From positions 992,001 to 1,056,000 of the forward strand of contig CBDCOZ010000003.1 in NCBI GenBank assembly GCA_965220085.1: 64,000 nt of DNA, written 5' to 3'. The notes beneath the pieces were generated by a model, which saw only the letters and a list, made by a program, of their open reading frames with translations, was not told where the DNA came from and did no database searches. Within the stretch, counting starts at the first letter, position 1, and each line of letters starts with the position of its first letter. A program made the translations under genes and the position numbers. The DNA comes from Candidatus Oxydemutatoraceae bacterium. GTDB taxonomy: Bacteria > Pseudomonadota > Gammaproteobacteria > Poriferisulfidales > Oxydemutatoraceae. Shown here in pieces: positions 34,717 through 64,000 of the stretch.

Positions 34717-35442
34717 GTGAGCAGAACGAACCGGGCATATTGCGAGCAAACTCTGCGCGTCGGCCGCGAGTTTGCGCTAAGCGGAGACGCCCATCACTAT
34801 TTGAGTCGCGTGCTCCGGCTGCGCGGCAAGGACGAGGTGTATTTCTTCAATCACGAAGGACGCGAATTTCTTTGCAAACTGATTGCGGCCGATCGCAAAA
34901 GCAGCGTATTCGCGTGCGAGCGCGAGGTCGATACGCTGGCGGAGGCCGCAATCGCAACCCGGCTCTATCTTGCCGTCTCAAAAAACGAGAGCATGGACTT
35001 TTCATTGCAAAAAGCGACCGAACTGGGCGTGAGCGCGGTACAGCCGTTATTGACCGCGCACAGCAGCCGCGCCGGCGATCGCCTCGGCCATTGGCGCGCG
35101 GTGGCGCGCAGCGCTTGTGAGCAGTGCGGTCGGGCAAAGTTACCCGAGATAAGAGAGCCGATTGCGATTGAGCGGATGGAGAAGGTTCCCGATCGCGTCG
35201 CCGCTTTTGTTTTGGATTTGCAATCCGACGGTGTTCTGGATGCGCAGTCGGAACATTCGCCGATGCCCGATGAAGTGCGTATTGCGGTCGGGCCCGAAGG
35301 CGATTGGCGGGATGACGAGGCGGCGATGCTGAACGAACTCGGTTTCAAATCGGTCTGTCTCGGCGCGCGTGTTTTGCGCTGCGATACGGCGGTTGTCGTT
35401 GCCTTGGGCATCGCGCAACACCAACTCGGCGCGCTGAAATAG
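34717..35442 (+). CDS. rsmE: 16S rRNA m3U1498 methyltransferase
   Basis: HYLSRVLRL, QKATELGV, ACEQCGR, VGPEGD and LGARVLRCDTA motifs. Confidence 0.92.
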   Translation: MSRTNRAYCEQTLRVGREFALSGDAHHYLSRVLRLRGKDEVYFFNHEGREFLCKLIAADRKSSVFACEREVDTLAEAAIATRLYLAVSKNESMDFSLQKATELGVSAVQPLLTAHSSRAGDRLGHWRAVARSACEQCGRAKLPEIREPIAIERMEKVPDRVAAFVLDLQSDGVLDAQSEHSPMPDEVRIAVGPEGDWRDDEAAMLNELGFKSVCLGARVLRCDTAVVVALGIAQHQLGALK

Positions 35443-35704
35443 GGGGTGATATCTGACTCCGCCCGCCCGACAGCGGAGGTCGTTGCAAGTTGCGACTACG
35501 ACGGCACAGTCTGCAACAGCCCGTATCGCCGCGCGTGTTTTACGCTGCGATACGGCGGTTGTCGTTGCCTTGGGCATCGCGCAACACCAACTCGGCGCGC
35601 TGAAATAGGGGATGATATTTGACTCCGCTCGCCCGACAACGGAAGCCGTTGCCAGCCGCGACCGCGACGGCACAGTCTCAAACAGCTTGTCTCGCCGCGC
35701 GTGT
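35364..35704 (+). repeat. 166-bp tandem duplication spanning the rsmE 3' end and downstream DNA
   Basis: Units start at 35364 and 35530; the 9-mer CGCGCGTGT occurs at 35364, 35530 and 35696. Confidence 0.95.
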
Positions 35705-35707
35705 CAC

Positions 35708-36940
35708 TCAATAGTTCTCGCTGACATATTTTTCCAGCAAGTCCTTAAAATCTTGCGCCAGCGTATCGCCCGACAAGGTGAGCGTATGTTTTCCATCGAC
35801 ATAGACCGGAGCGACAGGCTTCTCGCTGGTTCCCGGCAGGCTGATACCGATGTTTGCGTGGCGACTCTCTCCCGGGCCGTTGACGACGCATCCCATCACC
35901 GCCACTTTTATATCTTCGACTCCCCGATGATCTTTCTTCCATGCCGGCATTCGTTGACGAATGTAATCGCGCACTTCGGCGGTTAACACGCGGAAATAGT
36001 CGCTGTCGGTGCGACCGCATCCGGGGCAGGCGGTTATCGACGGCGCGAAAGATCGCAGGCCGAGGCTCTGCAAAATTTCTTGCGCAATGAACACCTCCTG
36101 CGTCCTGTCTTGCCCCGGTTCCGGCGTCAGGGATACGCGGATGGTATCGCCTATGCCTTCGTTGAGCAGGATGGCGATTGCGGCGCTCGATGCGACGGTT
36201 CCTTTGAGCCCCATGCCCGCTTCGGTCAGACCGAGGTGCAGCGGGTAATCGCATAAGCGCGCCAGTTTGCGATAGACCCGAATTAATTCTTGCACATCGC
36301 TGAGTTTGCACGATATGACAATCTGATCGTGTGCCAGACCGAGCTCTTCCGCCCGTTGCGCACTGCCGAGGGACGACTCGATCAGCGTTTCCCGGACAAT
36401 CGCCTCCAGCGAACGCGGTTGCTTCTGTTTTGCATTGCTGTCTAATCGCTTCTGTAGCAAGTCCTGATCCAAGCTGCCCCAATTGACGCCGATACGCACC
36501 GGCTTATTGAAACGGCATGCAATTTCAATCAGTTGGGCAAACTGTATGTCGTGTTTTGCCTTGCGCCCGACATTGCCGGGATTGATGCGCAGTTTGGAAA
36601 GCGCCTCGGCACACGCGGGGTTGTTGGCCAACAGCTTGTGTCCGTTGTAATGAAAGTCGCCGACTATCGGAACGGCAATGCCTCGCTGTGCGAGTTGCTC
36701 CGCAATATGCGGGACAGCCCGCGCGGCTTTCTCATTATTGACCGTCAGGCGCACTATTTCGGAACCGGCTTCGGCGAGAGCGGCGGTTTGCGCGACGGTC
36801 GCGCCGATATCCGCGGTATCCGTGCTGGTCATGGACTGCACCGCGACGGGCGTACCGCCGCCGATCGTCAGGCGCCCGATTTTTACCGCGACCGCATGGC
36901 GGCGGATTGGCAGGGATATTTCCGGTGGCATATTGGACAT
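35708..36940 (-). CDS. ispG: (E)-4-hydroxy-3-methylbut-2-enyl-diphosphate synthase
   Basis: [27 protein letters not shown] and [10 protein letters not shown] motifs. Confidence 0.96.
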
Positions 36941-36990
36941 AGCACTGATGACATTATAATACGAAGGGTATATCCGTTACGCATTGTTTG

Positions 36991-37395
36991 ATGATAATAA
37001 CTACGATTACCCGCCGCACAACCGGCAGGGGGCCACACGAATTAACGCAACAAGTCCGAGACTTGATCCCGCCGGATAGCCAAGGGATTTGCCACCTGTT
37101 TATCCGCCATACCAGCGCTTCGTTAATCATCACCGAGAATGCCGACCCCGATGTGCATAAAGACTTGGAGCGTTTTATGTCTGATCTGGCGCCGGACGGG
37201 GATTCCCGCTTTTGCCATGTCGCAGAAGGCGCCGACGACATGTCGGCGCATATCAGGTCGGTTTTGACGCAAACTTCCTTGGCCATTCCGGTCGCAGGCG
37301 GGCGGTTGCAACTCGGCGTGTGGCAGGGAATCTATTTGTGGGAACATCGGACTTCCCCGCGCGAACGAAAGGTTGTGTTCGGCCTTCTCACATAA
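36991..37395 (+). CDS. YjbQ/UPF0047 family protein
   Basis: HTSASLIITENADPDV and LGVWQGIYLWEHR motifs. Confidence 0.9.
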   Translation: MIITTITRRTTGRGPHELTQQVRDLIPPDSQGICHLFIRHTSASLIITENADPDVHKDLERFMSDLAPDGDSRFCHVAEGADDMSAHIRSVLTQTSLAIPVAGGRLQLGVWQGIYLWEHRTSPRERKVVFGLLT

Positions 37396-37414
37396 GCCGC
37401 CATACATCGCAAAT

Positions 37415-38497
37415 ATGTCCGACCGAAGAGCACATGTAGATTTCCATGACGTCAGCAAACGCTATGGCAATTCGTGTGTGGTGGACAATCTCTCGTTGCG
37501 CGTCTACGACAGCGAATTCCTGACGATATTGGGGCCGTCCGGATCGGGCAAAACCACATGCCTGATGATGCTGGCCGGTTTTGAGAATGTGAGCTCCGGA
37601 TCCATCGCAATCCATGGCCGACGGGCGAATGATATTCCGCCGCACAAACGGAATATCGGCTTTGTCTTTCAGCACTACGCGCTTTTCCCGCATATGACGG
37701 TGGCGGACAACTTGGCTTTCCCGCTACAGGTGCGCAAGACCGCCCGCGCGACGATAAAAGAGCGTGTCGCCGAGACCTTGGAGATGGTCAAGCTCGGGGA
37801 TTTTGCCAAGCGTTTTCCGGCGCAACTCTCGGGCGGGCAACAACAACGGGTCGCGCTTGCCCGCGCCTTGATATTCCGCCCCGATCTGGTTTTGATGGAT
37901 GAGCCGCTCGGCGCGTTGGATAAGCGGCTCAGAGAGCGGATGCAGTATGAGATGAAGCGCTTGCACGAAGAGCTTCGCTTCACCGCGCTTTATGTCACGC
38001 ACGATCAAAACGAAGCGCTGGTTATGTCGGATCGAATCGCGGTATTTAACGAAGGCAAGATACAACAGATCGATGAGCCGGATGTGCTGTACGAATCCCC
38101 CGCCAACGCTTTTTCCGCCGCTTTCATCGGCGAGAATAATATGCTGAACGGCAGGTTGCTGCGGACATCCGGCGACACATGCGCGGTTGAGTTAGACAAC
38201 GATAATCGCCTGCAAGGCACCCCGGTTAATTTGCCGCCGGGGGCTTCGCAGGTAGCGGCGGCTATCCGGCCCGAGCGGATACTGATAAATCCCGACGATG
38301 GCTGCCGTAATATCTTGTCGGCAAAGGTGCGCCAGTCGGTTTATTTCGGGGACTATATGCGCGTAGTCGTCGCTCTGTCGCAGGAACAGGAACTGGCGAT
38401 TAAGCTTCCCAATGACAGAAGCAAGGGCAATCCGGCAATCGGGCAACGGGTTAAAATAGGCTGGCACCCGGGAGACTGCCGCGTGTTTGCAATCTGA
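37415..38497 (+). CDS. PotA-like ABC transporter ATP-binding protein
   Basis: GPSGSGKTT, LSGGQQQRVALAR and DEPLGALD motifs; TOBE-like tail. Confidence 0.92.
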   Translation: MSDRRAHVDFHDVSKRYGNSCVVDNLSLRVYDSEFLTILGPSGSGKTTCLMMLAGFENVSSGSIAIHGRRANDIPPHKRNIGFVFQHYALFPHMTVADNLAFPLQVRKTARATIKERVAETLEMVKLGDFAKRFPAQLSGGQQQRVALARALIFRPDLVLMDEPLGALDKRLRERMQYEMKRLHEELRFTALYVTHDQNEALVMSDRIAVFNEGKIQQIDEPDVLYESPANAFSAAFIGENNMLNGRLLRTSGDTCAVELDNDNRLQGTPVNLPPGASQVAAAIRPERILINPDDGCRNILSAKVRQSVYFGDYMRVVVALSQEQELAIKLPNDRSKGNPAIGQRVKIGWHPGDCRVFAI

Positions 38498-38527
38498 ATG
38501 TATCATTTAATAATCTGAGTCAAGCCA

Positions 38528-39625
38528 ATGCGCCATAACAACCTCTTTCGCGAAACATCTTTTGTTTCTATGTTCTTAAGCTTATTGCTTTGCGGCGCTC
38601 TTGCCGGAGCCGGCGAAGCGCTGACTGTCACATCGTGGGGCGGCGCGTATTCGCATAGCCAGATCAAGGCTTACCACGAACCGTTCACCGCCAAAACCGG
38701 CATCCGCATCAACGCCGAGGATTACAACGGCGGCCTGGCGGAAGTGCGGGTGCAAGCGCAGTCCGGCAATGTCACCTGGGATGTGGTCGATATGTCTCTG
38801 TCTTCGGTCATCCGCGGGTGCGAAGAAGGGTTGCTCCACGAGTTGGATCTCGCCGCCTTCCCGCCGGCGCCCGACGGCGCGCCGGCCGAGGAAGACTTTT
38901 TGCCCGAGACCCTGGTGTCGGAGTGCGGCGCGCCGCTGATTATCTGGTCGACTATTTTTGCTTATGACAAGAGCAAATTCCCGCAGCGCAAACCGCAGCA
39001 TCTGGAAGATTTCTTTGACTTGGAAAAATTTCCGGGGCGCAGGGCATTGCGCAAGTCGCCGCGCTCCACCCTTGAGTTTGCATTGATGGCAAGCGGCGTC
39101 GCCGCGGCGGACGCATACGCCGTGCTATCGACCCCGCAGGGGCTCAAACGCGCGTTTGCAAAGCTCGACACGATCAAAGAGCATACGGTGTGGTGGGAGG
39201 CCGGCGCGCAGCCGCCGTTATTGTTGTCCGACGGCGAAGTGGCGATGGCGACGGCCTATAACGGCCGCATTTTCAACGCCTACAACAAAGAGAAAAAGCC
39301 GTTTGAAATTGTCTGGGACAGACAAATCTGGTATCGCAACTACTATGCCATCGTCAAAGGCACGCCGCGCTATAAACAGGCTCTGGAATACGTAAAATTT
39401 GCATCAGCCGCCAAACAACTGGCCAATCAGGCGCGGCATATCTCCTATGGGCCGGCGCGGCAATCGTCTATGGCGATGATTGCGACGCATGCCGAAACAG
39501 GAATTGATATGCGACCGCACATGCCGACCGAACACTTTGAAAACGTGTTGGAGAACGATTTTGAATGGTGGGCGGATTACGAAGACGAGATGACCGACCG
39601 CTTTAACACCTGGCTCGCCAAATAG
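38528..39625 (+). CDS. ABC transporter substrate-binding protein (PotD-like, polyamine/opine family)
   Basis: Signal peptide; LTVTSWGGAY, DFFDLEKFPGRR and VWWEAGAQPP motifs. Confidence 0.88.
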   Translation: MRHNNLFRETSFVSMFLSLLLCGALAGAGEALTVTSWGGAYSHSQIKAYHEPFTAKTGIRINAEDYNGGLAEVRVQAQSGNVTWDVVDMSLSSVIRGCEEGLLHELDLAAFPPAPDGAPAEEDFLPETLVSECGAPLIIWSTIFAYDKSKFPQRKPQHLEDFFDLEKFPGRRALRKSPRSTLEFALMASGVAAADAYAVLSTPQGLKRAFAKLDTIKEHTVWWEAGAQPPLLLSDGEVAMATAYNGRIFNAYNKEKKPFEIVWDRQIWYRNYYAIVKGTPRYKQALEYVKFASAAKQLANQARHISYGPARQSSMAMIATHAETGIDMRPHMPTEHFENVLENDFEWWADYEDEMTDRFNTWLAK

Positions 39626-39674
39626 GCCCCGCCGCTTGTGACGACGGGAACGATCGGGGCGGCGGCAAAAATCG

Positions 39675-40889
39675 GTGAAGCTGGCTAAATTCATAACAGA
39701 AACCTCAAGCATCCATCACCGGGGCATGGCTGTCGTACTGGTCCTGCCGCTGCTGTTATTCCTCGTATTCACTTATATCGTGCCTTTGGCCGATATTCTG
39801 TTCTATAGCGTAGACAACACGCCGCTGGCAAAACACATGCCGCGCGCCGCCGCCGCTCTGTCCGAGTGGGACGGTCTGGCGCTGCCCGATGATGACATGT
39901 TCAATACTGTCGGCGAAGACTTGGCGCGCGCTTACCGCAACCATTCAATCGGGCAAGTCGCAAACCACATCAACCATAAGCTGAGCGGCATGCGGAGCTT
40001 TTTGATCCGCACGGCGCGTCGTCTGGCAAAGTCGGAAGACACGCCTCATCGCTCCGCAATGATAGCGATCGACGAGCGCTGGGGCAAGCGCGAAACATGG
40101 GCGGCGTTGAAAGACGCCGCGCCGCGGCTGACCGCCGACAACTATTTGACAGCGCTTGATTTGCGCGCCGCCGACGGTGAGATCGTCCGGCAACCGGAAG
40201 ACAAAAGGATTTACCTGAAGATATTCTGGCGCACCTTGTGGGTCAGTTTTGTCGTCACATTAATCTGCCTCTTGCTGGGCTTTCCGGTCGCATATCTGAT
40301 GGCAAGCCTGCCGTTGCGCATCAGCAATTGGCTCATGATTATGGTCCTGTTGCCTTTTTGGACTTCGCTTTTGGTGCGGGCGGTGAGTTGGATCGTATTG
40401 CTGCAATCCAGCGGCGTACTCAACAGCATACTGGTATGGAGCGGTCTGATAGACGACAGCGAGCGGGTGCGGCTCATATTCAACCTCACAGGCACCGTGA
40501 TCGTGATGTCGTACGTCTTGTTGCCGTTTATGGTCTTGCCGCTATACAGCGTGATGAAGACGATTCCAAAGACAGTCGCGCGGGTCGCTATCTCGCTGGG
40601 CGCGCATCCGGTCACAGCGTTTTATCGCGCCTATTTGCCGCAGGCGGCGCCGGGCATCGCCGCCGGCAGTCTGCTGGTATTTATGCTGGCGGCGGGTTAC
40701 TACATCACGCCGGCGCTGGTCGGCGGTCAGAGCGGGCAGTTGATCAGCAACTTCATCGTCTATCACATCAAGACTTCGTTGAATTGGGGGCTCGCCGCCG
40801 CAATCGGAATCATCCTGCTTCTGGTCGTGCTGCTCGCATACAGAATCTACAATAAAGTTGCGGGTGTCGGCAAAGTGAAAATGATATGA
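39675..40889 (+). CDS. ABC transporter permease (PotB-like)
   Basis: LLPFWTSLLVR, LLPFMVLPLYSVM and GYYITPALVGG motifs; start could be the ATG at 39726. Confidence 0.88.
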   Translation: MKLAKFITETSSIHHRGMAVVLVLPLLLFLVFTYIVPLADILFYSVDNTPLAKHMPRAAAALSEWDGLALPDDDMFNTVGEDLARAYRNHSIGQVANHINHKLSGMRSFLIRTARRLAKSEDTPHRSAMIAIDERWGKRETWAALKDAAPRLTADNYLTALDLRAADGEIVRQPEDKRIYLKIFWRTLWVSFVVTLICLLLGFPVAYLMASLPLRISNWLMIMVLLPFWTSLLVRAVSWIVLLQSSGVLNSILVWSGLIDDSERVRLIFNLTGTVIVMSYVLLPFMVLPLYSVMKTIPKTVARVAISLGAHPVTAFYRAYLPQAAPGIAAGSLLVFMLAAGYYITPALVGGQSGQLISNFIVYHIKTSLNWGLAAAIGIILLLVVLLAYRIYNKVAGVGKVKMI

Positions 40890-41722
40890 GCGGCAAGGCC
40901 TGCAAGTTTGGCGCATCACTGGGACGGGGAATGTACCTGACATTTTGCGGTTTGGTTTTTGCTTTTCTGGTTCTGCCGCTGGCGGTTATCATCCCGCTTT
41001 CGTTCAATGCCGAACCATACTTCACGTTTACCCGCGAGATGCTGTCGCTTGAACCCGAAGCCTTCTCGTTGCGTTGGTATCGCGATATCGGCGTCAACCC
41101 GCAGTGGGGTTTGGCTTTTAAGAACAGCTTTATCATCGCGATAGCCGCCACCGTCTTATCCGTCGTCTTGGGAACGTGCGCCGCGCTGGGCCTGAACAAC
41201 CGCCATTTCCCGGCCCGGGCTTTCGTCATGAGCCTGCTTATCTCTCCCATCGTTGTCCCGATTATCATCTCCGCGGTCGGCATGTTCTTTTTTTACTCAT
41301 CGATTAACCTGTCCCAAACACTGACCGGGATCGTACTGGCGCACACCGTACTGGGTTCGCCGTTTGTCGTGATTACCGTGACAGCATCCTTGTCCCGTCT
41401 CAGCGAATCTCTGCCGTGTGCCGCTATGAGTTTGGGCGCTTCGCCGCCGCAGGCATTTTTCAAAGTCACTCTGCCGCAGATCACGCCGGGTATTTTTGCC
41501 GGAGGGTTATTCGCCTTTGCCACATCGTTTGACGAAGTGGTCGCGGTGTTGTTTTTGGCCGGCTTTGAACAACGCACGGTGCCGCGTCAGATGTGGGCCG
41601 GACTCAACGAGCAGATCAGCCCGACGATACTGGCGGTCGCGGTGTTATTGATCAGTGTTTCTATATTACTGATTATCGTAGCGGAGTTCCTGCGTCGGCG
41701 GGCACGGACAAGCGGCGACTAA
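40886..41722 (+). CDS. ABC transporter permease (PotC-like)
   Basis: FSLRWY, LAHTVLGSPFV and FATSFDEVV motifs. Confidence 0.9.
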   Translation: MSGKACKFGASLGRGMYLTFCGLVFAFLVLPLAVIIPLSFNAEPYFTFTREMLSLEPEAFSLRWYRDIGVNPQWGLAFKNSFIIAIAATVLSVVLGTCAALGLNNRHFPARAFVMSLLISPIVVPIIISAVGMFFFYSSINLSQTLTGIVLAHTVLGSPFVVITVTASLSRLSESLPCAAMSLGASPPQAFFKVTLPQITPGIFAGGLFAFATSFDEVVAVLFLAGFEQRTVPRQMWAGLNEQISPTILAVAVLLISVSILLIIVAEFLRRRARTSGD

Positions 41723-41735
41723 AGCGGCGAAACCG

Positions 41736-41809
41736 CGCTCCCGACAGGAGTCGAACCTGTGACATCCTTCTTAGGAGGAAGGCGCTCTATCCGGCTGAGC
41801 TACGGGAGC
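41736..41809 (-). tRNA. tRNA-Arg (anticodon CCT); CCA not encoded
   Basis: Minus strand GCTCCCGTAGCTCAGCCGGATAGAGCG CCTTC-CTCCTAA-GAAGG ATGTC ACAGGTTCGACTCCTGT CGGGAGCG forms a complete cloverleaf. Confidence 0.95.
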
Positions 41810-41856
41810 CATGCGGTTATTCCGTAATGATACCCGATTGCGGAAAATAAGGGCGA

Positions 41857-42231
41857 TCACCCCTGCTTTTCCCACCCGGCTTTTTTGTGCTCAATACGGG
41901 CGCTGGTTTGGATTCCGCCGCGGCGATTGAAATGCGCTTGCAAACACATATACCGCGGCGCGATCGCAGCGCACAGATGATCCAATATTTCATTGCTGAC
42001 CGCTTCGTGAAAAGCGCCGCGGTCTCTGAAAGTCCATATATAGTTTTTGAGGCTCTTGAGTTCTATGCACAACTTATCCGGAATATACTCTATTTTTATG
42101 CGGGCAAAATCCGGCTGCCCGGTCAGGGGGCAGAGACAGGTAAACTCAGGGATATCAATATAGATGGTATAATCTCTGCTATCCCTAGGGTTGTCAAAAG
42201 TCTCAATATTTTTATCCGGTCTGTTAGTCAT
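41857..42231 (-). CDS. queF: NADPH-dependent preQ0 reductase, short (type 1) form
   Basis: [25 protein letters not shown] and RRGGI motifs. Confidence 0.93.
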
Positions 42232-42297
42232 TTGGGCAATTCAATAATTGTAAAAATTCTTTGAGGCGATAGATTGTAACCCGATTCAAGCAATAAT

Positions 42298-46439: not shown

Positions 46440-48873
<2,434 letters not shown>

Positions 48874-48884
48874 GGCGATAGCGG

Positions 48885-49751
48885 CTAGGATGCGCCGCCT
48901 ATCCGTCTTTGCATTTTCGCCGCCAGTATGGTGTTTCTTATCAGGCAAGCGACAGTCATCGGCCCGGTTCCGCCCGGCATCGGCGTGATCGCTCCGGCGA
49001 CTTTCGCGACCTCATCAAACAGCACATCGCCGTATATCTTGTCCCCCTTGCGCGTGATACCGACGTCAAAAACAGCGGCTCCGGGTTTGACATATTCGGC
49101 TGTCACAAGTTCGGGCATACCGCAGGCGGCGACGAGAATATCGGCGCGCCGGCAGACGTGAGGCAGTTGCTTCGTAGCCGAATGGCAGATCGTGACAGTG
49201 CAATCCGTTCCCTTGCGCCCCAGCAGCAGCGCCAGCGGAAGGCCGACCAAGTGCGAGCGCCCGATGACCGTCGCATTGCGCCCCTCGGTCGGTATGTCAT
49301 AGCGCTTGATCAGCTCCATCACCCCAAGCGGCGTGCAGGGCGACAAGCCGCCGCTATTGTTCAGCAAGCGTCCGAGGTTGTCGGCGCCAAGCCCGTCGAC
49401 ATCTTTGAGCGGCGGGATCAGATCAAGTATCGGCGCGACCTCAAGGTGTTTCGGCAACGGCAGTTGCAGCAAGATACCGTGCACGGTGTCATCGCGCGCC
49501 AGTTGCCGGATGGCATTTTCAACCGCATCTTGCGGCGCATCGTCGGGCAGTTCTATCAGGCGCGGTATCAGCCCTGTCTGCGCCGCCATTTTCAGTTTCA
49601 GGCCGATATAGACCCGGCTGGGAGGATAGTCGCCGACCAGAACAGTCGCCAGCGTTATCTCGCTATTGCCGCTGCGAGCGATATCGCTTGCTAATTCCGC
49701 GATGATCTTCTCTGCCGTACGTTTGCCGTCGAGCAGAATCGCCTCTTGCAT
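48885..49751 (-). CDS. folD: Methylene-THF dehydrogenase/cyclohydrolase
   Basis: GILLQLPLP, KDVDG, PCTPLG, GRSHLVG and TPMPGGTGPMTVA motifs. Confidence 0.95.
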   Translation of the reverse strand: MQEAILLDGKRTAEKIIAELASDIARSGNSEITLATVLVGDYPPSRVYIGLKLKMAAQTGLIPRLIELPDDAPQDAVENAIRQLARDDTVHGILLQLPLPKHLEVAPILDLIPPLKDVDGLGADNLGRLLNNSGGLSPCTPLGVMELIKRYDIPTEGRNATVIGRSHLVGLPLALLLGRKGTDCTVTICHSATKQLPHVCRRADILVAACGMPELVTAEYVKPGAAVFDVGITRKGDKIYGDVLFDEVAKVAGAITPMPGGTGPMTVACLIRNTILAAKMQRRIGGAS

Positions 49752-53163: not shown

Positions 53164-53179
53164 GGGGATGTATTTTACA

Positions 53180-55200: not shown

Positions 55201-55210
55201 TCAGCGGATG

Positions 55211-56824: not shown

Positions 56825-56960
56825 GCATGCACGATTAGTGCCCTACTATACCATAAAACGCGCGTCATCCGCTCATGTCTTTGTATCTTGCCGCATCCCT
56901 TGTGCGCACAGCACACGAACCCAATCGCCTTGGACCGCTCATGCCTTTGTATCCTGCCGC

Positions 56961-57080
56961 ATCCCTTGTGCCTCCCCCTGACATTCCCTTCTCCCTGCGG
57001 GATATTCGCAATCGCCGTTTTACAACAGTTTCCGCTGTCGGGCGGACGAGTCGCATACGCAAGCCCCTATTCCGATTATG
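56961..57080 (-). promoter_or_regulatory. Conserved ~120-nt upstream element, copy A (putative promoter plus structured leader)
   Basis: Near-identical to 60527-60645; the minus strand starts with CATAAT followed by hairpins. Confidence 0.55.
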
Positions 57081-57085
57081 CTTGA

Positions 57086-58013
57086 TGGCTGCTTGATACC
57101 ATGACATGTCGGACACCCAGAGCAATATTGCGAGCCTCACGACCGCTTGAAGCTGTGACATGTCGGACACCCAGAGCAATATTGCGAGCCTCACGACCGC
57201 TTGAAGCTGTGACATGTCGGACACCTAGAGCAATGTTGTGTGCCTCACGACCACTTGAAGCCACGACACATCGGACACCTAGAGCAATGTTGTGTGCCTC
57301 ACGACCGCTTGAAGCCACGACACATCGGACACCTAGAGCAGTATCGTGTGCCTCATGGTTGCATGAAGCCACGACACATCGGACACCCAGAGCAACATTG
57401 TGCGCCTCACGTCCGCTTGAAGTCACGACATGCCGGACACCTAGAGCAATATCGTGTGCCTCACGGTTGCTTGAAGCCACGACACATCGGACACCTAGAG
57501 CAATATTGCGAGCCTCACGGACGCTTGAAGCTGTGACATGTCAGACACCCAGAGCAACATTGTGCGCCTCACGTCCGCTTGAAGTCACGACATGCCGGAC
57601 ACCTAGAGCAAACATTGTGTGCCTCACGGTTGCTTGAAGCCACGACACATCGGACACCCAGAGCAACATTGTGCGCCTCACGACCACTTGAAGCCGCGAC
57701 ACATCGGACACCCAGAGCAAACATGTGCCTCATGGCCGCTTGAAGCCACGACACATCGGACACCTAGAACAATACCGTGTGCCTCACGGCTGCTTGATGC
57801 CACGACACATCGGACACCTAGAGCAGTATCGTGTGCCTCATGGTTGCATGAAGCCACGACACATCGGATACCTAGAGCAAACATGTGCCTCACGACTGCT
57901 TGAAGCCACGACACATCGGACACCCAGAGCAAATGCTGTATGCCTCACGACCACTTGATGCCACGACACATCGGACACCTAGAGCAAACATGTGCCTCAC
58001 GGCTACTTGATGC
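57086..58013. repeat. Tandem array of 17 degenerate 52-55 bp units (mode 54 bp)
   Basis: Anchor CGGACACC(C/T)AGAGCA or a close variant at 57110, 57164, 57218, 57272, 57326, 57380, 57434, 57488, 57542, 57596, 57651, 57705, 57757, 57811, 57865, 57917, 57972. Confidence 0.95.
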
Positions 58014-58061
58014 TTCGGTTCGCAGTGTGCTCCCTTCGTGGTGGTGTCAAACCATAACAGA

Positions 58062-58115
58062 ATTCATGACAACTCGTGTTGATGTCGGCAAACCAAAATG
58101 TTTCCGGCATCATTC
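58062..58115 (-). repeat. Solitary inverted copy of the 50-bp unit from the 161-758 array
   Basis: ATTCATGACAACTCGTGTTGATGTCGGCAAACCAAAATGTTTCCGGCATCATTC matches the reverse complement of the array consensus. Confidence 0.85.
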
Positions 58116-58283
58116 AGAAAAAATCACGCCGTGAATCGGCGCTATTAGACCGTTCGTCAGGCAATCAATGCCGCCTGTCTATGGGTTGATCGCGGTCGCC
58201 GAATGAGCGCTATTATCCGGCACGAAGGTTATTGACCATAACCTCTTAATTAGTATTATTATTACAACCCGGAGGGAATAATC

Positions 58284-59084
58284 ATGAAGAAACCAAAAAA
58301 TTTAAAAGCGGAAGATGCGGCGGTTGCTGCTTATGGCTCCGTCGAGAACTTGACCGACGCAGGCTTTGACAAGGAGAAAGCGCGCGCGATTGCCAGCGAT
58401 CTATCCGCACTGTTGCGCAGACACCTGAGCGCTCTGGCAACGAAAAGCGAATTTGCCGAGTTTGAATCAGCGATTAGAGAAAAAATTGCCGAGTTTGAAT
58501 CGGCGATTAGAGAAAAAATTGCCGAGTCTGAATCAGAGATTGGAGAAAAGTTTGCCGAGTTTAAATCAGAGATTGTAGAAAGACTTGCCGAGTTTGAATC
58601 AGCAATCAGAGAGGAACTTGCCCAGCATAGGTCGGAAATCAAAAAAGAAACAGATGAGTTGAAAGCAACAGTAACTAAGTTGCAAGTAACAGTAGCTGAG
58701 TTGAAAGTAATGATAGCCGAGTCCGGGGCAAAAACCCAAAAACAAATAGATGAGTTGAGAGTGCTGATAGCCGAGTCTGGGGCAAAAACACAAAAACAAA
58801 TAGATGAGTCCGGGGCAAAAACCCAAAAACAAATAGATGAGTTGAGAGTGCTGATAGCCGAGTCTGGGGCAAAAACACAAAAACAAATAGATGAGTTGAG
58901 AGTACTGATAGCCGAGTCCGGGGCAAAAACCCAAAAACAAATAGATGAGTCCGGGGCAAAAACACAAAAACAAATAGATGAGTTGAGAGTAATGATATCT
59001 GAGCACACAGCAAAAATCACAACTCTGTTCGTGATAGTCTCCCTTGGGTTAGCGGCTCTTGTTATTGCGGCGCTAACTATATAG
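58284..59084 (+). CDS. DUF1640/CCDC90-like membrane-anchored coiled-coil protein with 11- and 18-aa internal repeats
   Basis: Head LTDAGFDKEKARAI, neck LATKSE, repeats FAEFESAIREK and IAESGAKTQKQIDELRVL, C-terminal TM; RBS GGAGG; AT-rich. Confidence 0.7.
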   Translation: MKKPKNLKAEDAAVAAYGSVENLTDAGFDKEKARAIASDLSALLRRHLSALATKSEFAEFESAIREKIAEFESAIREKIAESESEIGEKFAEFKSEIVERLAEFESAIREELAQHRSEIKKETDELKATVTKLQVTVAELKVMIAESGAKTQKQIDELRVLIAESGAKTQKQIDESGAKTQKQIDELRVLIAESGAKTQKQIDELRVLIAESGAKTQKQIDESGAKTQKQIDELRVMISEHTAKITTLFVIVSLGLAALVIAALTI

Positions 59085-59222
59085 TCTCCCTTGGGTTAGC
59101 GGCTCTTGTTATTGCGGCGCTAACTATATAGTCTCCCTTGGGTTAGCGGCTCTTGTTATTGCGGCGCTAACTATATAGTCTCCCTTGGGTTAGCGGCTCT
59201 TGTTATTGCGATGCTATCTATA
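59034..59222 (+). repeat. Four tandem 47-bp copies of the 3' end of the coiled-coil gene
   Basis: ATAGTCTCCCTTGGGTTAGCGGCTCTTGTTATTGCGGCGCTAACTAT at 59034, 59081 and 59128, plus a variant at 59175. Confidence 0.95.
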
Positions 59223-59355
59223 TTTATTGCACTCTCCGCTTAGGCCTGTGCCGTATCTTGTTCGCGCCGACAGAGAGGGGGCATGTTTCACAGACAGCGC
59301 TCCCTCTCCGGCGTAGCGCAACTGCGCCGACTCTCCCTCGCGGGGAGCGCTCGCG

Positions 59356-59415
59356 CTATCGCAACGGGCATTCAAGGAAGAGGCGCAGCCGCAACTGTGC
59401 GGCGGATTTCAAGGT
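59356..59415 (-). pseudogene. Orphan 3' remnant of a paralog of the adhesin-like gene
   Basis: Minus strand reads TLKSAAQLRLRLFLECPLR*, versus ...DIRLRLRLFLEGPLR* at 55211; followed by a similar hairpin. Confidence 0.75.
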
Positions 59416-60314
59416 CTGCGTTCCCCGTCCATCCACGACAGATCCCGGGATATGACAAGTTCGGTCATGGTTGCGTGGCGGGTGTTTTTCATCGCCACGG
59501 GTCGGGATTCAAAGCCGTATTTGTCGACCAGTTGCCGCACCTCATCGGCATTGTTGTAGGTCATCACGAAGTCGCCGGGCAATTCGGCGCAGAGCGCGAA
59601 CAGCCTGTCATGGTCCAAGCTGTGGTGCGTATACAGGCGGCTACCGGCGTTTTTGCCGCCGACGGTGTATGGCGGGTCTGTGAAGAATGCCGCATCGCCA
59701 TCGCCCATATGGCGGCGGATGCAGGCCATGGCATCGCCATGCTCAAAGCGCAGGCAATGGCGCGCGCGGTCTATGGCGCACAGCCTTTTGGCCAGAGTCT
59801 GCGGATACCATCCGGACATCAGCCCTCTGCCGCCTTCGCCGGTTTTTATCAGCCCGGAGCCACCGGCCAATATGCCGCCGCGCAGGGTGCGATTGCGCAC
59901 TATGGTCTGGAAGGCGCGTTCCCTGACGGAGCCGGGTTGTGCGGATATGACTGCGGTGACCGCATCTCTGGACATCTCAAATGACAGTATGCGCCGGGCC
60001 AGCCATTCGGCATCGCCCGCCATCAGCGTCTGCCAGACCGCCGCTACCGCATCGTCCAGCTCCACCATCAGGGCGCGCCCGGTCAGGCCCTCAAACACCG
60101 CTGTCAGCGAGATGATGCCGCCCCCGGCAAAAGGTTCCACCAGCAATGCCGGCCGCGCCCGACGACCGCCCAGCCATTGCCGCAAGCGCGGCACAAACCA
60201 GGTCTTGCCGCCCGCATAGCGAAAGGGGCTGCGATGCGGCACAGATGCCACATTCACAGGATTGGCAGATACGGAATCCGCATGCGCACCGGCAAAAAGG
60301 GCGACTTGTTGCAT
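59409..60314 (-). CDS. Dam-like (D12 class) N6-adenine DNA methyltransferase
   Basis: SPFRYAGGKTW, LVEPFAGGG and FFTDPPY motifs. Confidence 0.9.
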   Translation of the reverse strand: MQQVALFAGAHADSVSANPVNVASVPHRSPFRYAGGKTWFVPRLRQWLGGRRARPALLVEPFAGGGIISLTAVFEGLTGRALMVELDDAVAAVWQTLMAGDAEWLARRILSFEMSRDAVTAVISAQPGSVRERAFQTIVRNRTLRGGILAGGSGLIKTGEGGRGLMSGWYPQTLAKRLCAIDRARHCLRFEHGDAMACIRRHMGDGDAAFFTDPPYTVGGKNAGSRLYTHHSLDHDRLFALCAELPGDFVMTYNNADEVRQLVDKYGFESRPVAMKNTRHATMTELVISRDLSWMDGERRP

Positions 60315-60316
60315 AG

Positions 60317-60490
60317 TTAATTGCCTCCCAGAGGGGAATCCATGCGCTTGTTCACAGGTTCGGCTTCCAACTTCTCGTCCGCTTTGGCTTGCAAGGTATC
60401 AACAAACACATCCATTTTGCCCACTTTTGGCCGGGTTATGCCACGCAGAGCGGCATCAAATTTTGTATACAGAATCATAAAGCGCGAGCC
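60317..60490 (-). pseudogene. Probable C-terminal fragment of the cognate restriction endonuclease (possibly NotI-like)
   Basis: LYTKFDAALRGITRPKVGKMDVFVDTLQAKADEKLEAEPVNK ends 2 nt before the methylase start; the rest of the ORF runs into the leader repeat; family call is from recollection only. Confidence 0.4.
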
Positions 60491-60526
60491 ATCCGCAATG
60501 TCTTGGGTATCCGGTCTCGCCCCTGT

Positions 60527-60645
60527 ATCCCTTGTATGCCCCCCGACATTCCCTTTCCGCCGGCGGGACATTCGCAATCGCCGTTTTACAACGGTTTCCG
60601 TTGTCGGCGGGCGGGGCGCGTACGCATGCCCCTCTTCCGATTATG
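60527..60645 (-). promoter_or_regulatory. Conserved ~120-nt upstream element, copy B
   Basis: Shares TTCGCAATCGCCGTTTTACAAC and TTCCGATTATG exactly with copy A. Confidence 0.55.
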
Positions 60646-60705
60646 TATCCGCGACCCTATCATGCTAATATAGAGGGCATATCATCCGACAGAAACCCTT
60701 CTCTC

Positions 60706-61710
60706 ATGACAGACAGCACTCAGCCGTCGCTTCATACGTTGCAGAATATCGATGCGGAAGCTTGCGCGCCTTCTTTGCGCGACGATGTGTTGCAAGGGCT
60801 TTTCGCCGATCAAAAAACGTTGCCGTCAAAATACTTCTATGACGAGAAGGGTATGCGGATATTCGCGCGGATTTGTCAGTCGGACGAATACTATCTGACC
60901 CGCGCCGAGAACCGAATGTTGAAGGAGAAGGCCGCGGCGATCATCGCTTCCGCACAACCTCAGAATATCATTGAGTTGGGCAGCGGCTCATCGGACAAGA
61001 TACGCTTTTTTCTGGACGCTTGCGGTCGGCGCAACATACGCTGCAAGTATTGGCCGTTGGATGTGTGTTCGGAAGCGCTGGCGACGATGACCGGCATCTT
61101 GGCGGCGGAGTACCCGTGGTTGCGTATCAACGCTTTGGTCGGAGATTACGGCAATGGCTTGGAGGCCGTCGGCCTGCCGCAAAACGAGCGCAATCTGGCG
61201 CTGTTTATGGGCAGTACGATCGGCAATCTGACCCATCCTCAGGCGGTTTCCTTTTTGCGCCGGATTCGGCTCTTGGTCGGCGCGCAAGGGCGGTTGTTGG
61301 TCGGCATGGATCGGGTGAAAGATGTCGCGACGCTGACCGCCGCGTATAACGACGCGCAGGGTTTGACCGCGCAATTCAACATGAACATTCTTGAAGTGCT
61401 GAATGGTCGCATGGGGGCGAACTTTGAAGCGGACAAGTTTGAGCACCGCGCGGTGTATAACGAATCGCAAAGCCGGATAGAGATGCACCTTGTTTCAAAG
61501 GAAGAGCAGAGCGTGTATTTTGAAAGTTTGGACAAGCGCCTCGCTCTGCGGCGGGACGAAACGATTCGCACCGAGATCAGTCGCAAATTTTGCGATGACG
61601 AAATTGAATCGTTGCTGAGCGAAAGCGGATTTGCGTTTGAGCGACACTATGTGTCCGATAACGGTTATTTTTCTTTGGCGCTGGCCAAGAATGCGGGGGA
61701 GGAGGCTTGA
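60706..61710 (+). CDS. egtD: L-histidine N-alpha-trimethyltransferase
   Basis: KTLPSKYFYD, EYYLTRAE, ELGSGS, FMGSTIGN, AYNDAQG, RIEMHL and TEISRKF motifs. Confidence 0.93.
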   Translation: MTDSTQPSLHTLQNIDAEACAPSLRDDVLQGLFADQKTLPSKYFYDEKGMRIFARICQSDEYYLTRAENRMLKEKAAAIIASAQPQNIIELGSGSSDKIRFFLDACGRRNIRCKYWPLDVCSEALATMTGILAAEYPWLRINALVGDYGNGLEAVGLPQNERNLALFMGSTIGNLTHPQAVSFLRRIRLLVGAQGRLLVGMDRVKDVATLTAAYNDAQGLTAQFNMNILEVLNGRMGANFEADKFEHRAVYNESQSRIEMHLVSKEEQSVYFESLDKRLALRRDETIRTEISRKFCDDEIESLLSESGFAFERHYVSDNGYFSLALAKNAGEEA

Positions 61711-61711
61711 G

Positions 61712-62410
61712 ATGGCCGAAGTGCTTGTCGTCGATGATGATCCGTCCATATGCGATATGCTTTGCTTCTTGTTGGGCAGCGAAGGGTATCGGGTGCGCAA
61801 GGCGTATGACGCTCGCGAGGCGTTGCGGCGCGTCGGAGAAAAGGTTCCGGATCTCGTGCTGGTCGATTGGATGATGCCCGGCATGAACGGGGTTGAGTTG
61901 ATTCGCTGTTTGCGCTCCGAGCCGACCACACGGCGGTTGCCGATCATCATGCTCACCGCCAAAGACAGCGAGAGCGACAAAGTCGAAGGGCTGGTCGTCG
62001 GCGCCGATGACTATATCCTGAAGCCGTTTTCCAATCGCGAACTGTGCGCGCGTGTCAAAGCCCTTTTGCGCCGCGCCAAGCCGCACAAGACGCAAGAGAA
62101 AGTCGTCTGCAAAGACATGACCCTGGACCCGCAGTTGCATAGCGTCAATATCAACGGGGAGGATATTGTCATCCCGGCGACAGAGTTTCGTTTGTTGCAC
62201 TTCTTGACCGCCCACGAAGGCCTGGTATTTTCCCGCCGCCAGTTGTTGGACGGCGTTTGGGGCACGGAGAGATTTGTCGAGGATCGCACGGTCGATGTGC
62301 AGGTCGGCAGGTTGCGCAAAACATTGGCGCAGAACGGCAAGCGGCATATCGCCCAAAAGGTTCGGACTATCAGGGGCATCGGTTACAGTTATCGCGGCGA
62401 TGGCGCTTGA
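61712..62410 (+). CDS. phoB: PhoB-like OmpR-family response regulator
   Basis: DWMMPG, PIIMLTAK, GADDYILKPFS, EFRLLHF and VEDRTVDVQVGRLRK motifs. Confidence 0.85.
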   Translation: MAEVLVVDDDPSICDMLCFLLGSEGYRVRKAYDAREALRRVGEKVPDLVLVDWMMPGMNGVELIRCLRSEPTTRRLPIIMLTAKDSESDKVEGLVVGADDYILKPFSNRELCARVKALLRRAKPHKTQEKVVCKDMTLDPQLHSVNINGEDIVIPATEFRLLHFLTAHEGLVFSRRQLLDGVWGTERFVEDRTVDVQVGRLRKTLAQNGKRHIAQKVRTIRGIGYSYRGDGA

Positions 62411-62460
62411 AGCAACGATGCCTCTTGCCAATCGGCTATGATGTTTGCCACCGCTTTGTT

Positions 62461-63564
62461 ATGAAAATTCTCTCGCATTTGCGGCAGCGGTTTGCATTGC
62501 CGTCGGAAGATGTTCCCGCCTCCGGCGGGCGGGATGCGGCGGCGCTTGATCGCGAGCTGTTATTGGTTGCCGGTCTTGAATCGGCGGGCGACGGTTGCGG
62601 CCTGATTCTGGTCAAAGACAAGGGCAACATCGTCTGGTTTAATGAGCCGAGTCGCCGCTGGTTTGCTTTGTCCCGGGCGCGGGATATAGGCGAGAACATT
62701 ACCCATCTGATTCGCAACCCGACATTCTTGGAACGCTTTAAGCAAGGAAACTTTGGCGAGATGATGATATTCAGAGAGATTAACCCCGGTCTGAGCGCGG
62801 GCATCAGCATCTTGCCGTGGAGCGCCGATTACCGGTTGATCATCGTCCATGATTTTTCTCAGCGGCAGAGGCTTGAGGACTCCGGTCGCGAGATCATGGC
62901 GAATCTGTCGCACGAGTTGCGTTCTCCGTTGACGGTGATCAAGGGCTATCTCGATACCCTGAGTACGATCTATGACAGCGGCAAAGACAAGGATATTTCC
63001 GCCGCGCTCCGCAACATGCTCAAGCAGTGCGTGCGGATGCAGCAGTTGGTCGAGGATACCTTGTTGCTCGGACGCTTGGAAACGAGCGAGGTGCGCGCGG
63101 ATGAACTTGAGACGGTGGACATTCCGCTGCTTGTCGACGGCCTGACCGGCGACTTGCAAGAAGTGTGGCCGGGGCGGGAGATTGAGATCAGCGGCGAGAG
63201 GCATAGCATGAATTGCATCCGCGCCGACATATACAGCGTGCTGAGCAATCTGCTGAGCAACGCGCTCAACTATTCTGGCGCCGACAGCACGGTGCGATTG
63301 GAGTGGCACACACGGGACGACGGTTTTTATTTTGCTGTGACGGATCGGGGAATCGGGATTGAGGCGACACATATCCCGTACCTGAGCGAGAGGTTTTACC
63401 GCGTGGACAAAGCGCGGTCAAACGCTACCGGCGGCGTCGGTCTGGGCTTGGCAATCGTCGCCCGCACCCTCGACCGTTACGGCGCTCGGCTCAGAATCGA
63501 CAGCGAATACGGCGTCGGCAGCACCTTCTCGTGCATCTTTCCGCGCGAGCATATCGTCCGCTGA
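62461..63564 (+). CDS. phoR: PhoR-like sensor histidine kinase (PAS-HisKA-HATPase)
   Basis: NLSHELRSPLTVIKGY, NLLSNALNY and ERFYRVDKARS..TGGVGLGLAIV motifs. Confidence 0.85.
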   Translation: MKILSHLRQRFALPSEDVPASGGRDAAALDRELLLVAGLESAGDGCGLILVKDKGNIVWFNEPSRRWFALSRARDIGENITHLIRNPTFLERFKQGNFGEMMIFREINPGLSAGISILPWSADYRLIIVHDFSQRQRLEDSGREIMANLSHELRSPLTVIKGYLDTLSTIYDSGKDKDISAALRNMLKQCVRMQQLVEDTLLLGRLETSEVRADELETVDIPLLVDGLTGDLQEVWPGREIEISGERHSMNCIRADIYSVLSNLLSNALNYSGADSTVRLEWHTRDDGFYFAVTDRGIGIEATHIPYLSERFYRVDKARSNATGGVGLGLAIVARTLDRYGARLRIDSEYGVGSTFSCIFPREHIVR

Positions 63565-64000
63565 CGGCGCATAGAATCGCCGGCGGCGTCGGTTTGCGCT
63601 TGGCAATCGTCGCCCGCACCCTCGACCGCTACGGCGCTCGGCTCAGAATCGACAGCGAATACGGCGTCGGCAGCACCTTCTCGCGCATCTTTCCGCGCGA
63701 GCATATCGTCCGCTGACGGCGCATAGAATCGCCGGCGGCGTCGGTTTGGGCTTGGCAATCGTCGCCCGCACCCTCGACCGTTACGGCGCTCGGCTCAGAA
63801 TCGACAGCGAATACGGCGTCGGCAGCGCCTTCTCGCGCATCTTTCCGCGCGAGCATATCGTCCGCTGACGGCGCATAGAATCGCCGGCGGCGTCGGTCTG
63901 GGCTTGGCAATCGTCGCCCGAACCCTCGACCGCTACGGCGCTCGGCTCAGAATTGACAGCGAATACGGCGTCGGCAGCGCCTTCTCGCGCATCTTTCCGC
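63428..64000 (+). repeat. At least four tandem 152-bp copies of the phoR 3' end including the stop codon (runs off the window)
   Basis: Units start at 63428, 63580, 63732 and 63884; TGA stops end at 63564, 63716 and 63868. Confidence 0.97.

Follow-up and report, generated by a model that had tools for sequence, protein, structure and literature searches.

Tandem arrays at four gene ends

The stretch of DNA analysed here, referred to throughout as the window, comprises 64,000 nucleotides (positions 992,001 to 1,056,000 of contig CBDCOZ010000003.1) from the genome of a Candidatus Oxydemutatoraceae bacterium. Four of its genes, encoding an RsmE-type 16S rRNA methyltransferase, the NAD-dependent DNA ligase LigA, a coiled-coil 'DUF1640-like' protein and a histidine kinase, carry tandem arrays at their 3' ends, and Tandem Repeats Finder (TRF) recovers all four arrays where the initial annotation of the window had placed them (Table 1). 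That annotation had regarded the untranslated units as a possible reservoir of spare C-termini. The results presented below favour a different origin, in which the arrays belong to a population of recent tandem duplications that extends over the whole genome and its lineage. The kinase is called phoR for brevity; the HisKA and HATPase_c domains, together with the convergent neighbour pstB, suggest a phoR-like gene.

In rsmE, ligA and phoR the duplicated unit consists of the last 83-137 nt of the gene, the stop codon and 7-83 nt beyond it, and the stop is kept in all silent units. The final 83 nt of rsmE form the opening part of unit 1 of its array. When the rsmE units are registered in frame at 165 nt, variable columns number 2 of 81 in the coding part vs 16 of 85 in the non-coding part. 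In the region 35443-35704 the identity between copies is about 81% in the non-coding half and 97.5% in the silent coding half, and several of the non-coding changes fall within a GC-rich stretch that may form a hairpin. The final 92 nt of ligA lie inside unit 1 of a five-unit array, in which TGA is retained in every silent unit; units 2 and 3 are identical across the compared 90-nt coding part, and unit 4 is a mosaic. As a result of the duplications, the stop-to-stop distance between ligA and the convergent folD has increased from about 18 nt to 414 nt. The phoR array is cut by the window end and continues in the genome as five full units to 64187, followed by a 12-nt partial copy (ccggcggcgtcg) at 64188-64199, which ends 2 nt before the stop codon of pstB.

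The initial annotation had taken the first unit of each array for the real gene end. This holds for rsmE, ligA and phoR, but not for the 47-bp array, which does not span the old stop codon and is an out-of-frame duplication within the ancestral open reading frame (ORF) of the DUF1640-like gene. Since 47 is not divisible by three, the present stop codon in unit 2 (TAG, 59082-59084) is in frame only via the 47-nt shift, and the ancestral stop is found at 59241-59243, just past the diverged last unit. The family has at least five copies in the genome, and the sequence downstream of the gene is conserved as well; the frame-shifting 47-bp array is present in two members (with 4 and 3 units), and three others have a single tail. 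These three single-tail paralogues end in ...LTIFVALSV or close variants, with the stop six residues later than in the window copy, which ends in ...AALTI. The family name itself refers to a CCDC90-like match that lies below the family cut-off (27.1 vs 33.5 bits).

Three of the four genes had been described as facing a convergent gene; the count is in fact four (ispG, folD, a D12-class methyltransferase-like ORF and pstB). The location of all four genes on the + strand is correct as noted, but it carries no signal, as the local replichore is mostly + (between 1000 and 1200 kb on contig C3, 90 of 132 genes have this orientation). Genome-wide, 52% of the genes with 3' arrays are on the leading strand vs 65% of the background, as expected once convergent pairs are included. 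The D12-class ORF has an 85% identical copy on contig C2. Upstream of the DUF1640-like gene, the window also contains a 54-bp array that is not a gene-end copy; its unit length is divisible by three and it is crossed by open frames, and our ORF scorer called no gene there.

Table 1. Coordinates of the arrays, the associated genes and related loci (window coordinates unless a contig is named)
Feature	Position	Strand	Remarks
rsmE-type 16S rRNA methyltransferase gene	34717-35442	+	PF04452, 130 bits; PUA_4; start is the longest-ORF choice
rsmE array	35360-35704	+	TRF: 166 bp x 2.1, 89% matches
rsmE array, unit 1	35360-35525	+	83 nt of gene end including stop codon, 83 nt non-coding
rsmE array, unit 2	35526-35691	+	silent
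rsmE array, partial third copy	35692-35704	+	13 nt, presumed founding short repeat
ispG (GcpE)	35708-36940	-	PF04551, 379 bits; convergent to rsmE
ligA, NAD-dependent DNA ligase	46464-48470	+	nine Pfam families, including adenylation, OB-fold, helix-hairpin-helix and BRCT
ligA array	48379-48873	+	TRF: 99 bp x 5.0, 96% matches; five units
ligA array, expressed unit	48379-48477	+	
ligA array, silent units	from 48478, 48577, 48676 and 48775	+	
folD	48885-49751	-	convergent to ligA
54-bp array	57091-58001		54 bp x 16.9, 83% matches
DUF1640-like gene	58284-59084	+	coiled-coil, tail-anchored; internal 33/54/87/141-bp repeats
47-bp array	59034-59223	+	TRF: 47 bp x 4.0, 97% matches; four units, the last diverged
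D12-class methyltransferase-like ORF	59409-60314	-	PF02086, 32 bits; convergent to the DUF1640-like gene
Histidine kinase, phoR-like	62257-63564	+	HisKA and HATPase_c; final 137 nt within array unit 1
phoR array	63428-64000 (cut by window end)	+	152-bp unit; reaches window coordinate 64199 in the genome
DUF1640-like family loci	window 58284-59260; C3:1318155-1319423, 858370-859316, 1300486-1301022, 1341988-1342469		
mutS 3'-end array	C3:1208323-1209495		outside the window; 147 bp x 8
Retron-type reverse transcriptases	C3:1925585-1926475 (L086); C1:169866-170891 (L087)		

Genome-wide census and placement of arrays

The genome from which the window derives (G000; 2.49 Mb in three contigs, 99% complete) contains 511 merged tandem arrays according to TRF, corresponding to 182,459 bases or 7.3% of the genome, and 310 of these have units of at least 30 bp. 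Under the same TRF settings, 100 kb of Escherichia coli K-12 yielded 3 arrays, covering 369 bases (0.37%). The 310 arrays were classified relative to 1,924 genes, which were called with our own codon-usage ORF scorer and for which starts are longest-ORF choices (Table 2). Unit lengths are divisible by three in 101 of the 103 arrays inside genes vs 74 of 207 (36%) elsewhere, and also in 30 of the 31 internal arrays with at least 90% identity.

Expected numbers were derived by placing unit-sized segments randomly on a version of the genome in which every array was collapsed to one unit. A stop codon is overlapped by 86 of the 310 arrays and a start codon by 42, and the random placement of all 310 predicts 26.7 over a stop codon. 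In the same unscaled comparison the over-representation is just as large for intergenic positions, and arrays inside genes fall 2.3-fold short of expectation. Thus the enrichment at stop codons, proposed in the initial annotation as a check, is observed in raw numbers but decreases to approximately 1.2-fold (86 vs 73) when disruptive positions are set aside. With the expectation scaled to the 207 non-internal arrays the classes still deviate from random placement (chi-square 53.7): convergent gene ends are enriched 3.3-fold, arrays that overlap only a start codon reach about half of the expected number, and arrays touching 3' ends only outnumber those touching 5' ends only by 63 to 19. The class with two convergent 3' ends also includes an array at C3:838308-838852. 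Intergenic arrays are flanked by co-directional genes in 62 cases, by convergent genes in 19 and by divergent genes in 20, approximately the share of intergenic bases in each class. In combination, placement reflects tolerance wherever no gene is broken, but gene starts hold approximately half as many arrays as expected and the space between convergent stop codons three times as many.

Table 2. Placement of arrays with units of at least 30 bp in G000, with expectations scaled to the 207 non-internal arrays, and of the 129 such arrays in 900 kb of the second genome, G009 (5' classes in G000 are approximate)
Class	G000 observed	G000 expected	G009 observed
Inside gene	103		41
Intergenic	102	90	32
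One 3' end only	42	35.7	28
3' end and 5' end	23	31.2	13
Two convergent 3' ends	21	6.4	5
One 5' end only	19	40.2	10
Two divergent 5' ends	0	3.6	0

An all-against-all comparison of unit consensus sequences left 171 of the 310 arrays as singletons, including those of rsmE, ligA and phoR, and the 47-bp unit matched only the array of a paralogous gene. The initial observation that the units of the different genes share no sequence is therefore confirmed, since those of rsmE, ligA and phoR match none of the other arrays. The same is true of its corollary that a process, rather than one mobile repeat, is at work: 89 of 105 gene-end arrays share sequence with no other array, and 16 do. A separate phenomenon is represented by dispersed repeat families, which hold 50 of the 102 intergenic arrays and look like small mobile or repetitive extragenic palindromic (REP)-like elements. 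In one of them a 50-bp unit occurs at 6 loci, among them 161-745 of the window; others have a 56-58-bp unit, seen at the 3' ends of 6 genes, or a 65-bp unit, seen at 4 loci, and a further family includes units of 35-40 bp at 13 loci.

Direct repeats that could have founded the arrays are 12 nt long in phoR (ccggcggcgtcg) and 13 nt in rsmE, and only 0-3 nt in ligA. Among 87 clean arrays (at least 95% matches and no indel) the remainder past whole copies is 0-16 nt in about half. The non-internal arrays have a median unit length of 104 bp (37-282 bp between the 5th and 95th percentiles), and their copy number and match have medians of 2.9 and 94%, respectively; their A content is 0.213 vs 0.217 in the genome. 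Perfect arrays, with 100% matches, account for only 10 of the 310.

Synonymous excess among units

Later copies were aligned to the coding part of unit 1, which resulted in 98 pairs of gene end and array, 73 of them with at least two clean units. Comparisons between silent copies made use of 176 clean copies; a further 21, all non-terminal, contained indels or matched only in part and were not included. Expected numbers of synonymous changes were obtained in a matched relocation test, in which each observed change is moved, within its segment, to a different site carrying the identical base. Across all units the 362 variable columns divide into 163 synonymous, 192 non-synonymous and 7 nonsense or stop-loss columns, vs expectations of 115.9 for the synonymous (z 5.55) and 19.4 for the nonsense or stop-loss class. 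When only silent copies are compared, 59 of 132 columns are synonymous, 70 non-synonymous and 3 nonsense or stop-loss; 41.0 synonymous columns are expected (z 3.54), equivalent to a share of 0.447 vs 0.311. The neutral share itself varies with the method, being 0.29 for a symmetric spectrum, 0.329 for a directional one and 0.31-0.32 under matched relocation, and the excess survives the latter two. Reading the columns in wrong frames (+1, +2 and two antisense) gives a synonymous share of 0.25-0.30, at expectation, and the antisense frame that shares third-codon positions gives 0.38, an echo of the real frame. The proposed bias of unit variation towards synonymous changes was thus reproduced, and it is present only in the real frame.

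For the window genes themselves, synonymous and non-synonymous columns number 1 and 1 in rsmE, 4 and 3 in ligA, and 4 and 4 in phoR. The original count of 9 synonymous among 15 variable coding sites accordingly becomes 9 of 17 with the whole phoR array included, and the reported absence of nonsense changes and indels stands. In 20 cleanly registered arrays of the 3'-only class the density of variable columns per site is 0.080 for synonymous, 0.050 for non-coding and 0.022 for non-synonymous positions. The silent-copy excess is strong in this class, with 34 of 66 columns synonymous vs 20.3 expected. Arrays that copy gene 5' ends behave similarly: in 25 of these, 53 of 115 columns are synonymous, and 22 of 43 among silent copies only, where a share of about 0.29 is expected.

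A synonymous bias in comparisons that include unit 1 is expected, that copy being under selection, and by rough arithmetic a star-shaped history of 2-5 units would give a share of roughly 0.37-0.47. The excess among silent copies alone needs more, namely that the expressed unit gave rise to silent ones on separate occasions or has been swapping with them. Either would be a consequence of the ordinary expansion, contraction and conversion that tandem arrays undergo.

Probable exchange between units and a difference in copy number

Evidence of exchange was obtained from a four-gamete test, for which an array needed four or more clean units and at least two informative sites. Of the 12 arrays that qualified, 7 contain incompatible sites (27 of 91 site pairs). 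Mosaics are directly visible in ligA unit 4 and in the phoR units. Outside the window, mutS also ends in an array of its own 3' end, in which the same block of linked variants occurs in units 4 and 6, two-unit blocks having been copied together. A difference in copy number was seen in a single case, the 47-bp array, which has 4 units in the window vs 3 at the paralogous locus, the two loci being 97.8% identical over 748 nt. At the paralogue, two synonymous changes separate the expressed unit from the silent ones.

The suggestion that silent copies cycle through the expressed position fits both the silent-only excess and the four-gamete failures, and cycling is thus supported as a mechanism, but not in its further sense of a device or reservoir. 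This does not make a device of the arrays, as the same signal appears at 5' ends, the variation is conservative, the genes are housekeeping genes and placement follows a filter for harm. A reservoir specific to C-termini finds no support, given the equal synonymous excess in 5'-end copies and the array placement, which is equally intergenic or in-frame internal. The null model offered in the initial annotation, random slippage followed by survival, accounts for the placement of the arrays, but does not by itself explain the synonymous bias of the silent copies.

Sequencing reads, relatives and a second genome

Contigs derived from the reads of run X1, possibly the sample from which the genome was assembled, end at the ligA array, and a 124-nt record among them crosses the junction between units 1 and 2 with no difference. 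In run X2, a second sample from the same study, a 129-nt record over a ligA-array junction shows two differences matching other units: it departs from ligA unit 4 at 48729 and 48734, towards the state of units 2, 3 and 5.

No close relative of G000, the sole member of its genus, was found: the best LigA among 30 relatives is 58-59% identical, sequence scans returned nothing above 55% in genome contigs and nothing above 51% in two metagenome scans, and the LigA and RsmE protein clusters are singletons. TRF detected no array with units of at least 30 bp at the ligA loci of eight out of nine relatives, and a 90-bp x 2.0 array lies beside ligA at the relative locus L010. Samples of 100 kb from 12 relatives contained 0-14 arrays of this unit size, and the family is repeat-rich. 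In one sample from a same-order relative (G024:C1:500001-600000), 41% of the 100 kb is tandem repeat, distributed over 4 arrays, and this stretch is probably a giant repeat-protein gene.

The architecture seen in G000 recurs in G009, which belongs to a different genus and has a single-contig genome; the 900 kb of it that were analysed contain 129 arrays (11.6% of bases; Table 2). Unit lengths are divisible by three in 40 of its 41 internal arrays, and 33 arrays lie on 3' ends only vs 10 on 5' ends only. The convergent class holds 5 arrays vs a raw expectation of 0.4, or about 0.8 when scaled to the non-internal total, a roughly 6-fold excess. Synonymous columns are again in excess, both among all units (64 of 162 vs 48.6 expected) and among silent units (19 of 37 vs 10.7), with no excess in shifted frames.

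Repair genes, reverse transcriptases and the spectrum of changes

G000 encodes MutS, MutL, RecA, a UvrD/Rep-type helicase, an AddA-like enzyme, the exonuclease VII large subunit and three DEDD exonucleases. RecJ, exonuclease I (ExoI), RecQ and RecC were searched for in this 99%-complete genome and not found; the sole DHHA1 match over the cut-off lies in an 878-residue open frame, which is probably alanyl-tRNA synthetase and not RecJ. In other genera of the family, recJ was likewise not found in 2 and recQ in 3. Counts of arrays with units of at least 30 bp and at least 90% identity in the 100-kb samples were 1, 1, 5 and 0 for relatives with recQ and 3, 6, 3, 2, 0, 13 and 2 for relatives in which recQ was not detected, and a relative with only a RecQ-like match had 0. 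This trend is weak and the relatives are not independent, and no support is drawn from it.

The differences between units are dominated by transitions, with 280 transitions vs 82 transversions in coding columns and 138 vs 20 in intergenic arrays with at least three units, and they are strand-symmetric (A>G 31, G>A 38). Such a transition-biased spectrum is reminiscent of weak mismatch repair, though mutS and mutL are present. Two reverse transcriptases were detected, of retron types VI and IX and far from the window; the type VI retron lies beside a type III restriction endonuclease and the type IX next to a helix-turn-helix partner. Diversity-generating retroelements require a reverse transcriptase and adenine-specific changes. 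The retron affiliation of both enzymes, in combination with unit changes that are not adenine-specific, led us to reject such an element, and the dedicated mechanism considered in the initial annotation was not seen.

Comparison with known systems

The nearest described case is that of the tandem repeats in the Borg elements of Methanoperedens. As described, locus-specific tandem repeats are pervasive in one replicon, ORF-internal repeats are always divisible by three vs 14-38% of the intergenic ones, partial repeats flank the arrays, about half of the repeats lie between genes or start with a unit that belongs to a gene end, and the units are reported as perfect and A-rich (PMC9879509). The rule of three, the partial flanking repeats and the first units in gene ends are all shared with the arrays in G000. 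Unlike the Borg repeats as described there, the G000 arrays are rarely perfect and not enriched in A, have a median unit of about 100 bp ranging up to about 400 bp, and reside on a bacterial chromosome.

Short-homology illegitimate recombination and tandem duplication in E. coli are reportedly restrained by RecQ and exonuclease I, according to work attributed to Hanada (1997) and Ukita (1996), both cited in PMC11111574. A further study describes very increased illegitimate recombination in an E. coli recB1080 recQ xonA mutant (PMC3375238). Duplication between short direct repeats is common to both situations, and RecQ, ExoI, RecJ and RecC are not detectable in G000. However, the E. coli events were scored in laboratory reporters, whereas G000 bears a standing genomic load of 7% and has an AddA-like enzyme. 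Mycobacterial interspersed repetitive units (MIRU), in the extract of the literature used here, constitute one mobile family that inserts at start codons (PMC12548453). In MIRU variable-number tandem repeats (MIRU-VNTR) too, as far as that extract describes them, tandem units of variable number sit at gene boundaries and the neighbouring genes stay working. By contrast, the units reported here copy the local gene end and are unrelated between loci, and most of the arrays of this finding lie between convergent stop codons, where no translational coupling is needed. A single unit at many loci, as in MIRU or REP-like elements, occurs among other arrays of G000 and in none of the four window arrays.

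The systems of silent cassettes in Neisseria (pilE/pilS) and Borrelia (vlsE) diversify surface proteins, mainly by amino-acid-changing variation. These systems resemble the present arrays in having an expressed gene end with nearby unexpressed copies able to replace it, but here the genes are housekeeping genes and the variation consists of synonymous-biased, strand-symmetric transitions. Concerted evolution of tandem arrays, such as rDNA and satellites, proceeds by unequal crossing-over and conversion, and this is the process invoked here for the synonymous bias. As in those arrays, units share a recent history, mosaics arise and copy number drifts; in contrast to rDNA and satellites, selection for a protein product acts on the first unit only and the purifying signal is diluted. 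A literature search (subscription journals and supplements outside its scope) returned no paper on tandem arrays of gene ends on a comparable scale for any bacterial chromosome. The present analysis contributes counts for the whole genome, a synonymous bias that is specific to the frame and extends to silent copies, a control with 5' ends and a second genome.

Discussion

We consider it reasonably probable, at about 0.7, that the four arrays are ordinary members of a genome-wide and lineage-wide population of recent tandem duplications, and that they represent a by-product rather than a dedicated reservoir of C-termini. The anatomy of the arrays suggests an origin in chance direct repeats of about 4-16 nt, where the segment lying between two such repeats, some 30-400 bp long, would be duplicated through slipped mispairing or template switching during replication. 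Selection, as the placement statistics show, then purges frame-breaking duplications and most of those that disturb gene starts, leaving in-frame internal, intergenic and gene-end-straddling repeats, with the safest spot between two convergent stop codons. Copy numbers, mosaics and the paralogue pair point to a further stage in which unequal recombination or slippage would expand, contract and reshuffle the arrays. Finally, the synonymous bias is consistent with movement of sequence between the expressed first unit and the silent units. Silent copies would then hold a mix of selection-screened changes and fresh neutral changes, and such a mix is expected to produce an intermediate ratio of non-synonymous to synonymous change (dN/dS); the value among units, for which the initial annotation had asked, is indeed intermediate at about 0.5. 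It follows from this scheme that silent tails may replace the expressed tail, as a by-product and not through a designed reservoir. The high duplication rate might, purely as a hypothesis, be linked to the missing RecQ, RecJ and ExoI functions.

Several observations weigh against this interpretation or limit its reach. The silent-copy excess is absent in convergent-pair arrays (11 of 35 synonymous vs 10.8 expected) and marginal in 3'+5' arrays (14 of 31 vs 9.9), and its bootstrap interval over arrays, an excess of 0.013 to 0.211, nearly touches zero. The contrast between the silent coding part of rsmE (2 of 81 variable columns) and its non-coding part (16 of 85) is unpredicted by simple decay. 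Likewise, a plain filter of harmless against harmful positions does not predict the 3.3-fold excess of convergent ends over purely intergenic positions, which could be a site preference of the duplication process itself. The copy numbers rest on the assembly, as the X1 contigs break in the ligA array and display one junction only. Our own ORF scorer is crude, and the longest-ORF starts make the 5' classes approximate. With respect to the proposed cause, array density does not track the presence of recQ or recJ cleanly in the 100-kb samples of 12 relatives.

An alternative that accepts the arrays as real would attribute the unit differences to alleles of co-existing strains, introduced either by homologous recombination with related cells, landing in any unit, or by an assembler or polisher mixing strain reads. 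Strain alleles of an expressed gene end would be mostly synonymous, and the bias could then appear without any cycling within the lineage. The X2 record, with its departures from ligA unit 4 at 48729 and 48734, indicates that unit variants do differ between samples; mosaic units, found in 7 of 12 arrays, are also expected from imported tracts, and the bias was seen in two metagenome-type assemblies. Nevertheless, no second strain or close relative emerged from the searches (LigA at 58-59% in 30 relatives, at most 51% in the metagenomes, and singleton clusters for LigA and RsmE), the paralogue pair already shows a change in copy number within one genome, and the missing silent-copy bias in the class with two 3' ends is left unexplained. 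We therefore regard this explanation as unlikely. That the arrays are assembly artefacts, concatenating strain alleles, is highly improbable: although the k-mer contigs of X1 break in the ligA array and the copy number depends on the assembly, an artefact would ignore reading frames, yet the unit length is a multiple of three in 101 of 103 internal arrays vs 36% elsewhere. Furthermore, contigs built from the reads of two runs contain junction sequence, the same architecture occurs in the single-contig genome of another genus, and the paralogue pair carries the same array at 3 and 4 units.

It is also conceivable that gene-end arrays are kept since they are useful, as spacers or insulators for convergent genes with stop codons about 20-100 nt apart or as a C-terminus reservoir, possibly with a dedicated mechanism. 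The excess at convergent ends (3.3-fold in G000, 21 vs 6.4, and roughly 6-fold in G009), the growth of the ligA-folD gap from about 18 to 414 nt and the preponderance of 3'-only over 5'-only arrays (63 vs 19) would all be accommodated, as would the stops retained in silent copies, the few nonsense changes (7 vs 19.4 expected) and the better preservation of the silent coding part of rsmE relative to its non-coding part. Set against this are the same synonymous bias in 5'-end copies, the distribution of fully intergenic arrays, which is proportional to intergenic bases, and the identity of the genes, whose housekeeping roles give no obvious reason for variable tails. The variation, moreover, is synonymous-biased and not diversifying, the opposite of known silent-cassette systems, and consists of symmetric transitions with no diversity-generating retroelement seen. 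Usefulness as the reason for retention hence appears quite improbable, and the arrays remain best described as recent duplications filtered by selection.

Small tandem duplications in bacterial chromosomes are usually rare and short-lived. With hundreds of arrays in two genera of one family, both the birth spectrum of such duplications and the selective filter acting on them can be read from sequence: repeats that keep the frame survive within genes, gene starts tolerate arrays about half as well as gene ends do, and tolerance is highest at convergent ends. A natural read-out of how often units change places is provided by the purifying signal, which untranslated copies carry in diluted form. 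Annotation is affected as well, in that many spurious mini-ORFs arise from such arrays and a stop codon can be displaced, as the 47-bp array shows. If the link to the repair genes is true, the lineage would be a natural counterpart to the genetics of illegitimate recombination in E. coli. A more far-reaching proposal, to which we attach little weight, is that tandem duplication of 30-400 bp proceeds at a very high rate peculiar to this lineage (arrays occupy 7-12% of the chromosome in two genera), perhaps owing to RecQ/RecJ/ExoI loss or to a site preference for convergent ends, and that exchange within arrays may give about 150 genes a standing pool of partly pre-screened N- and C-termini. If that were true, this pool of alternative termini would measurably shape the evolution of protein ends.

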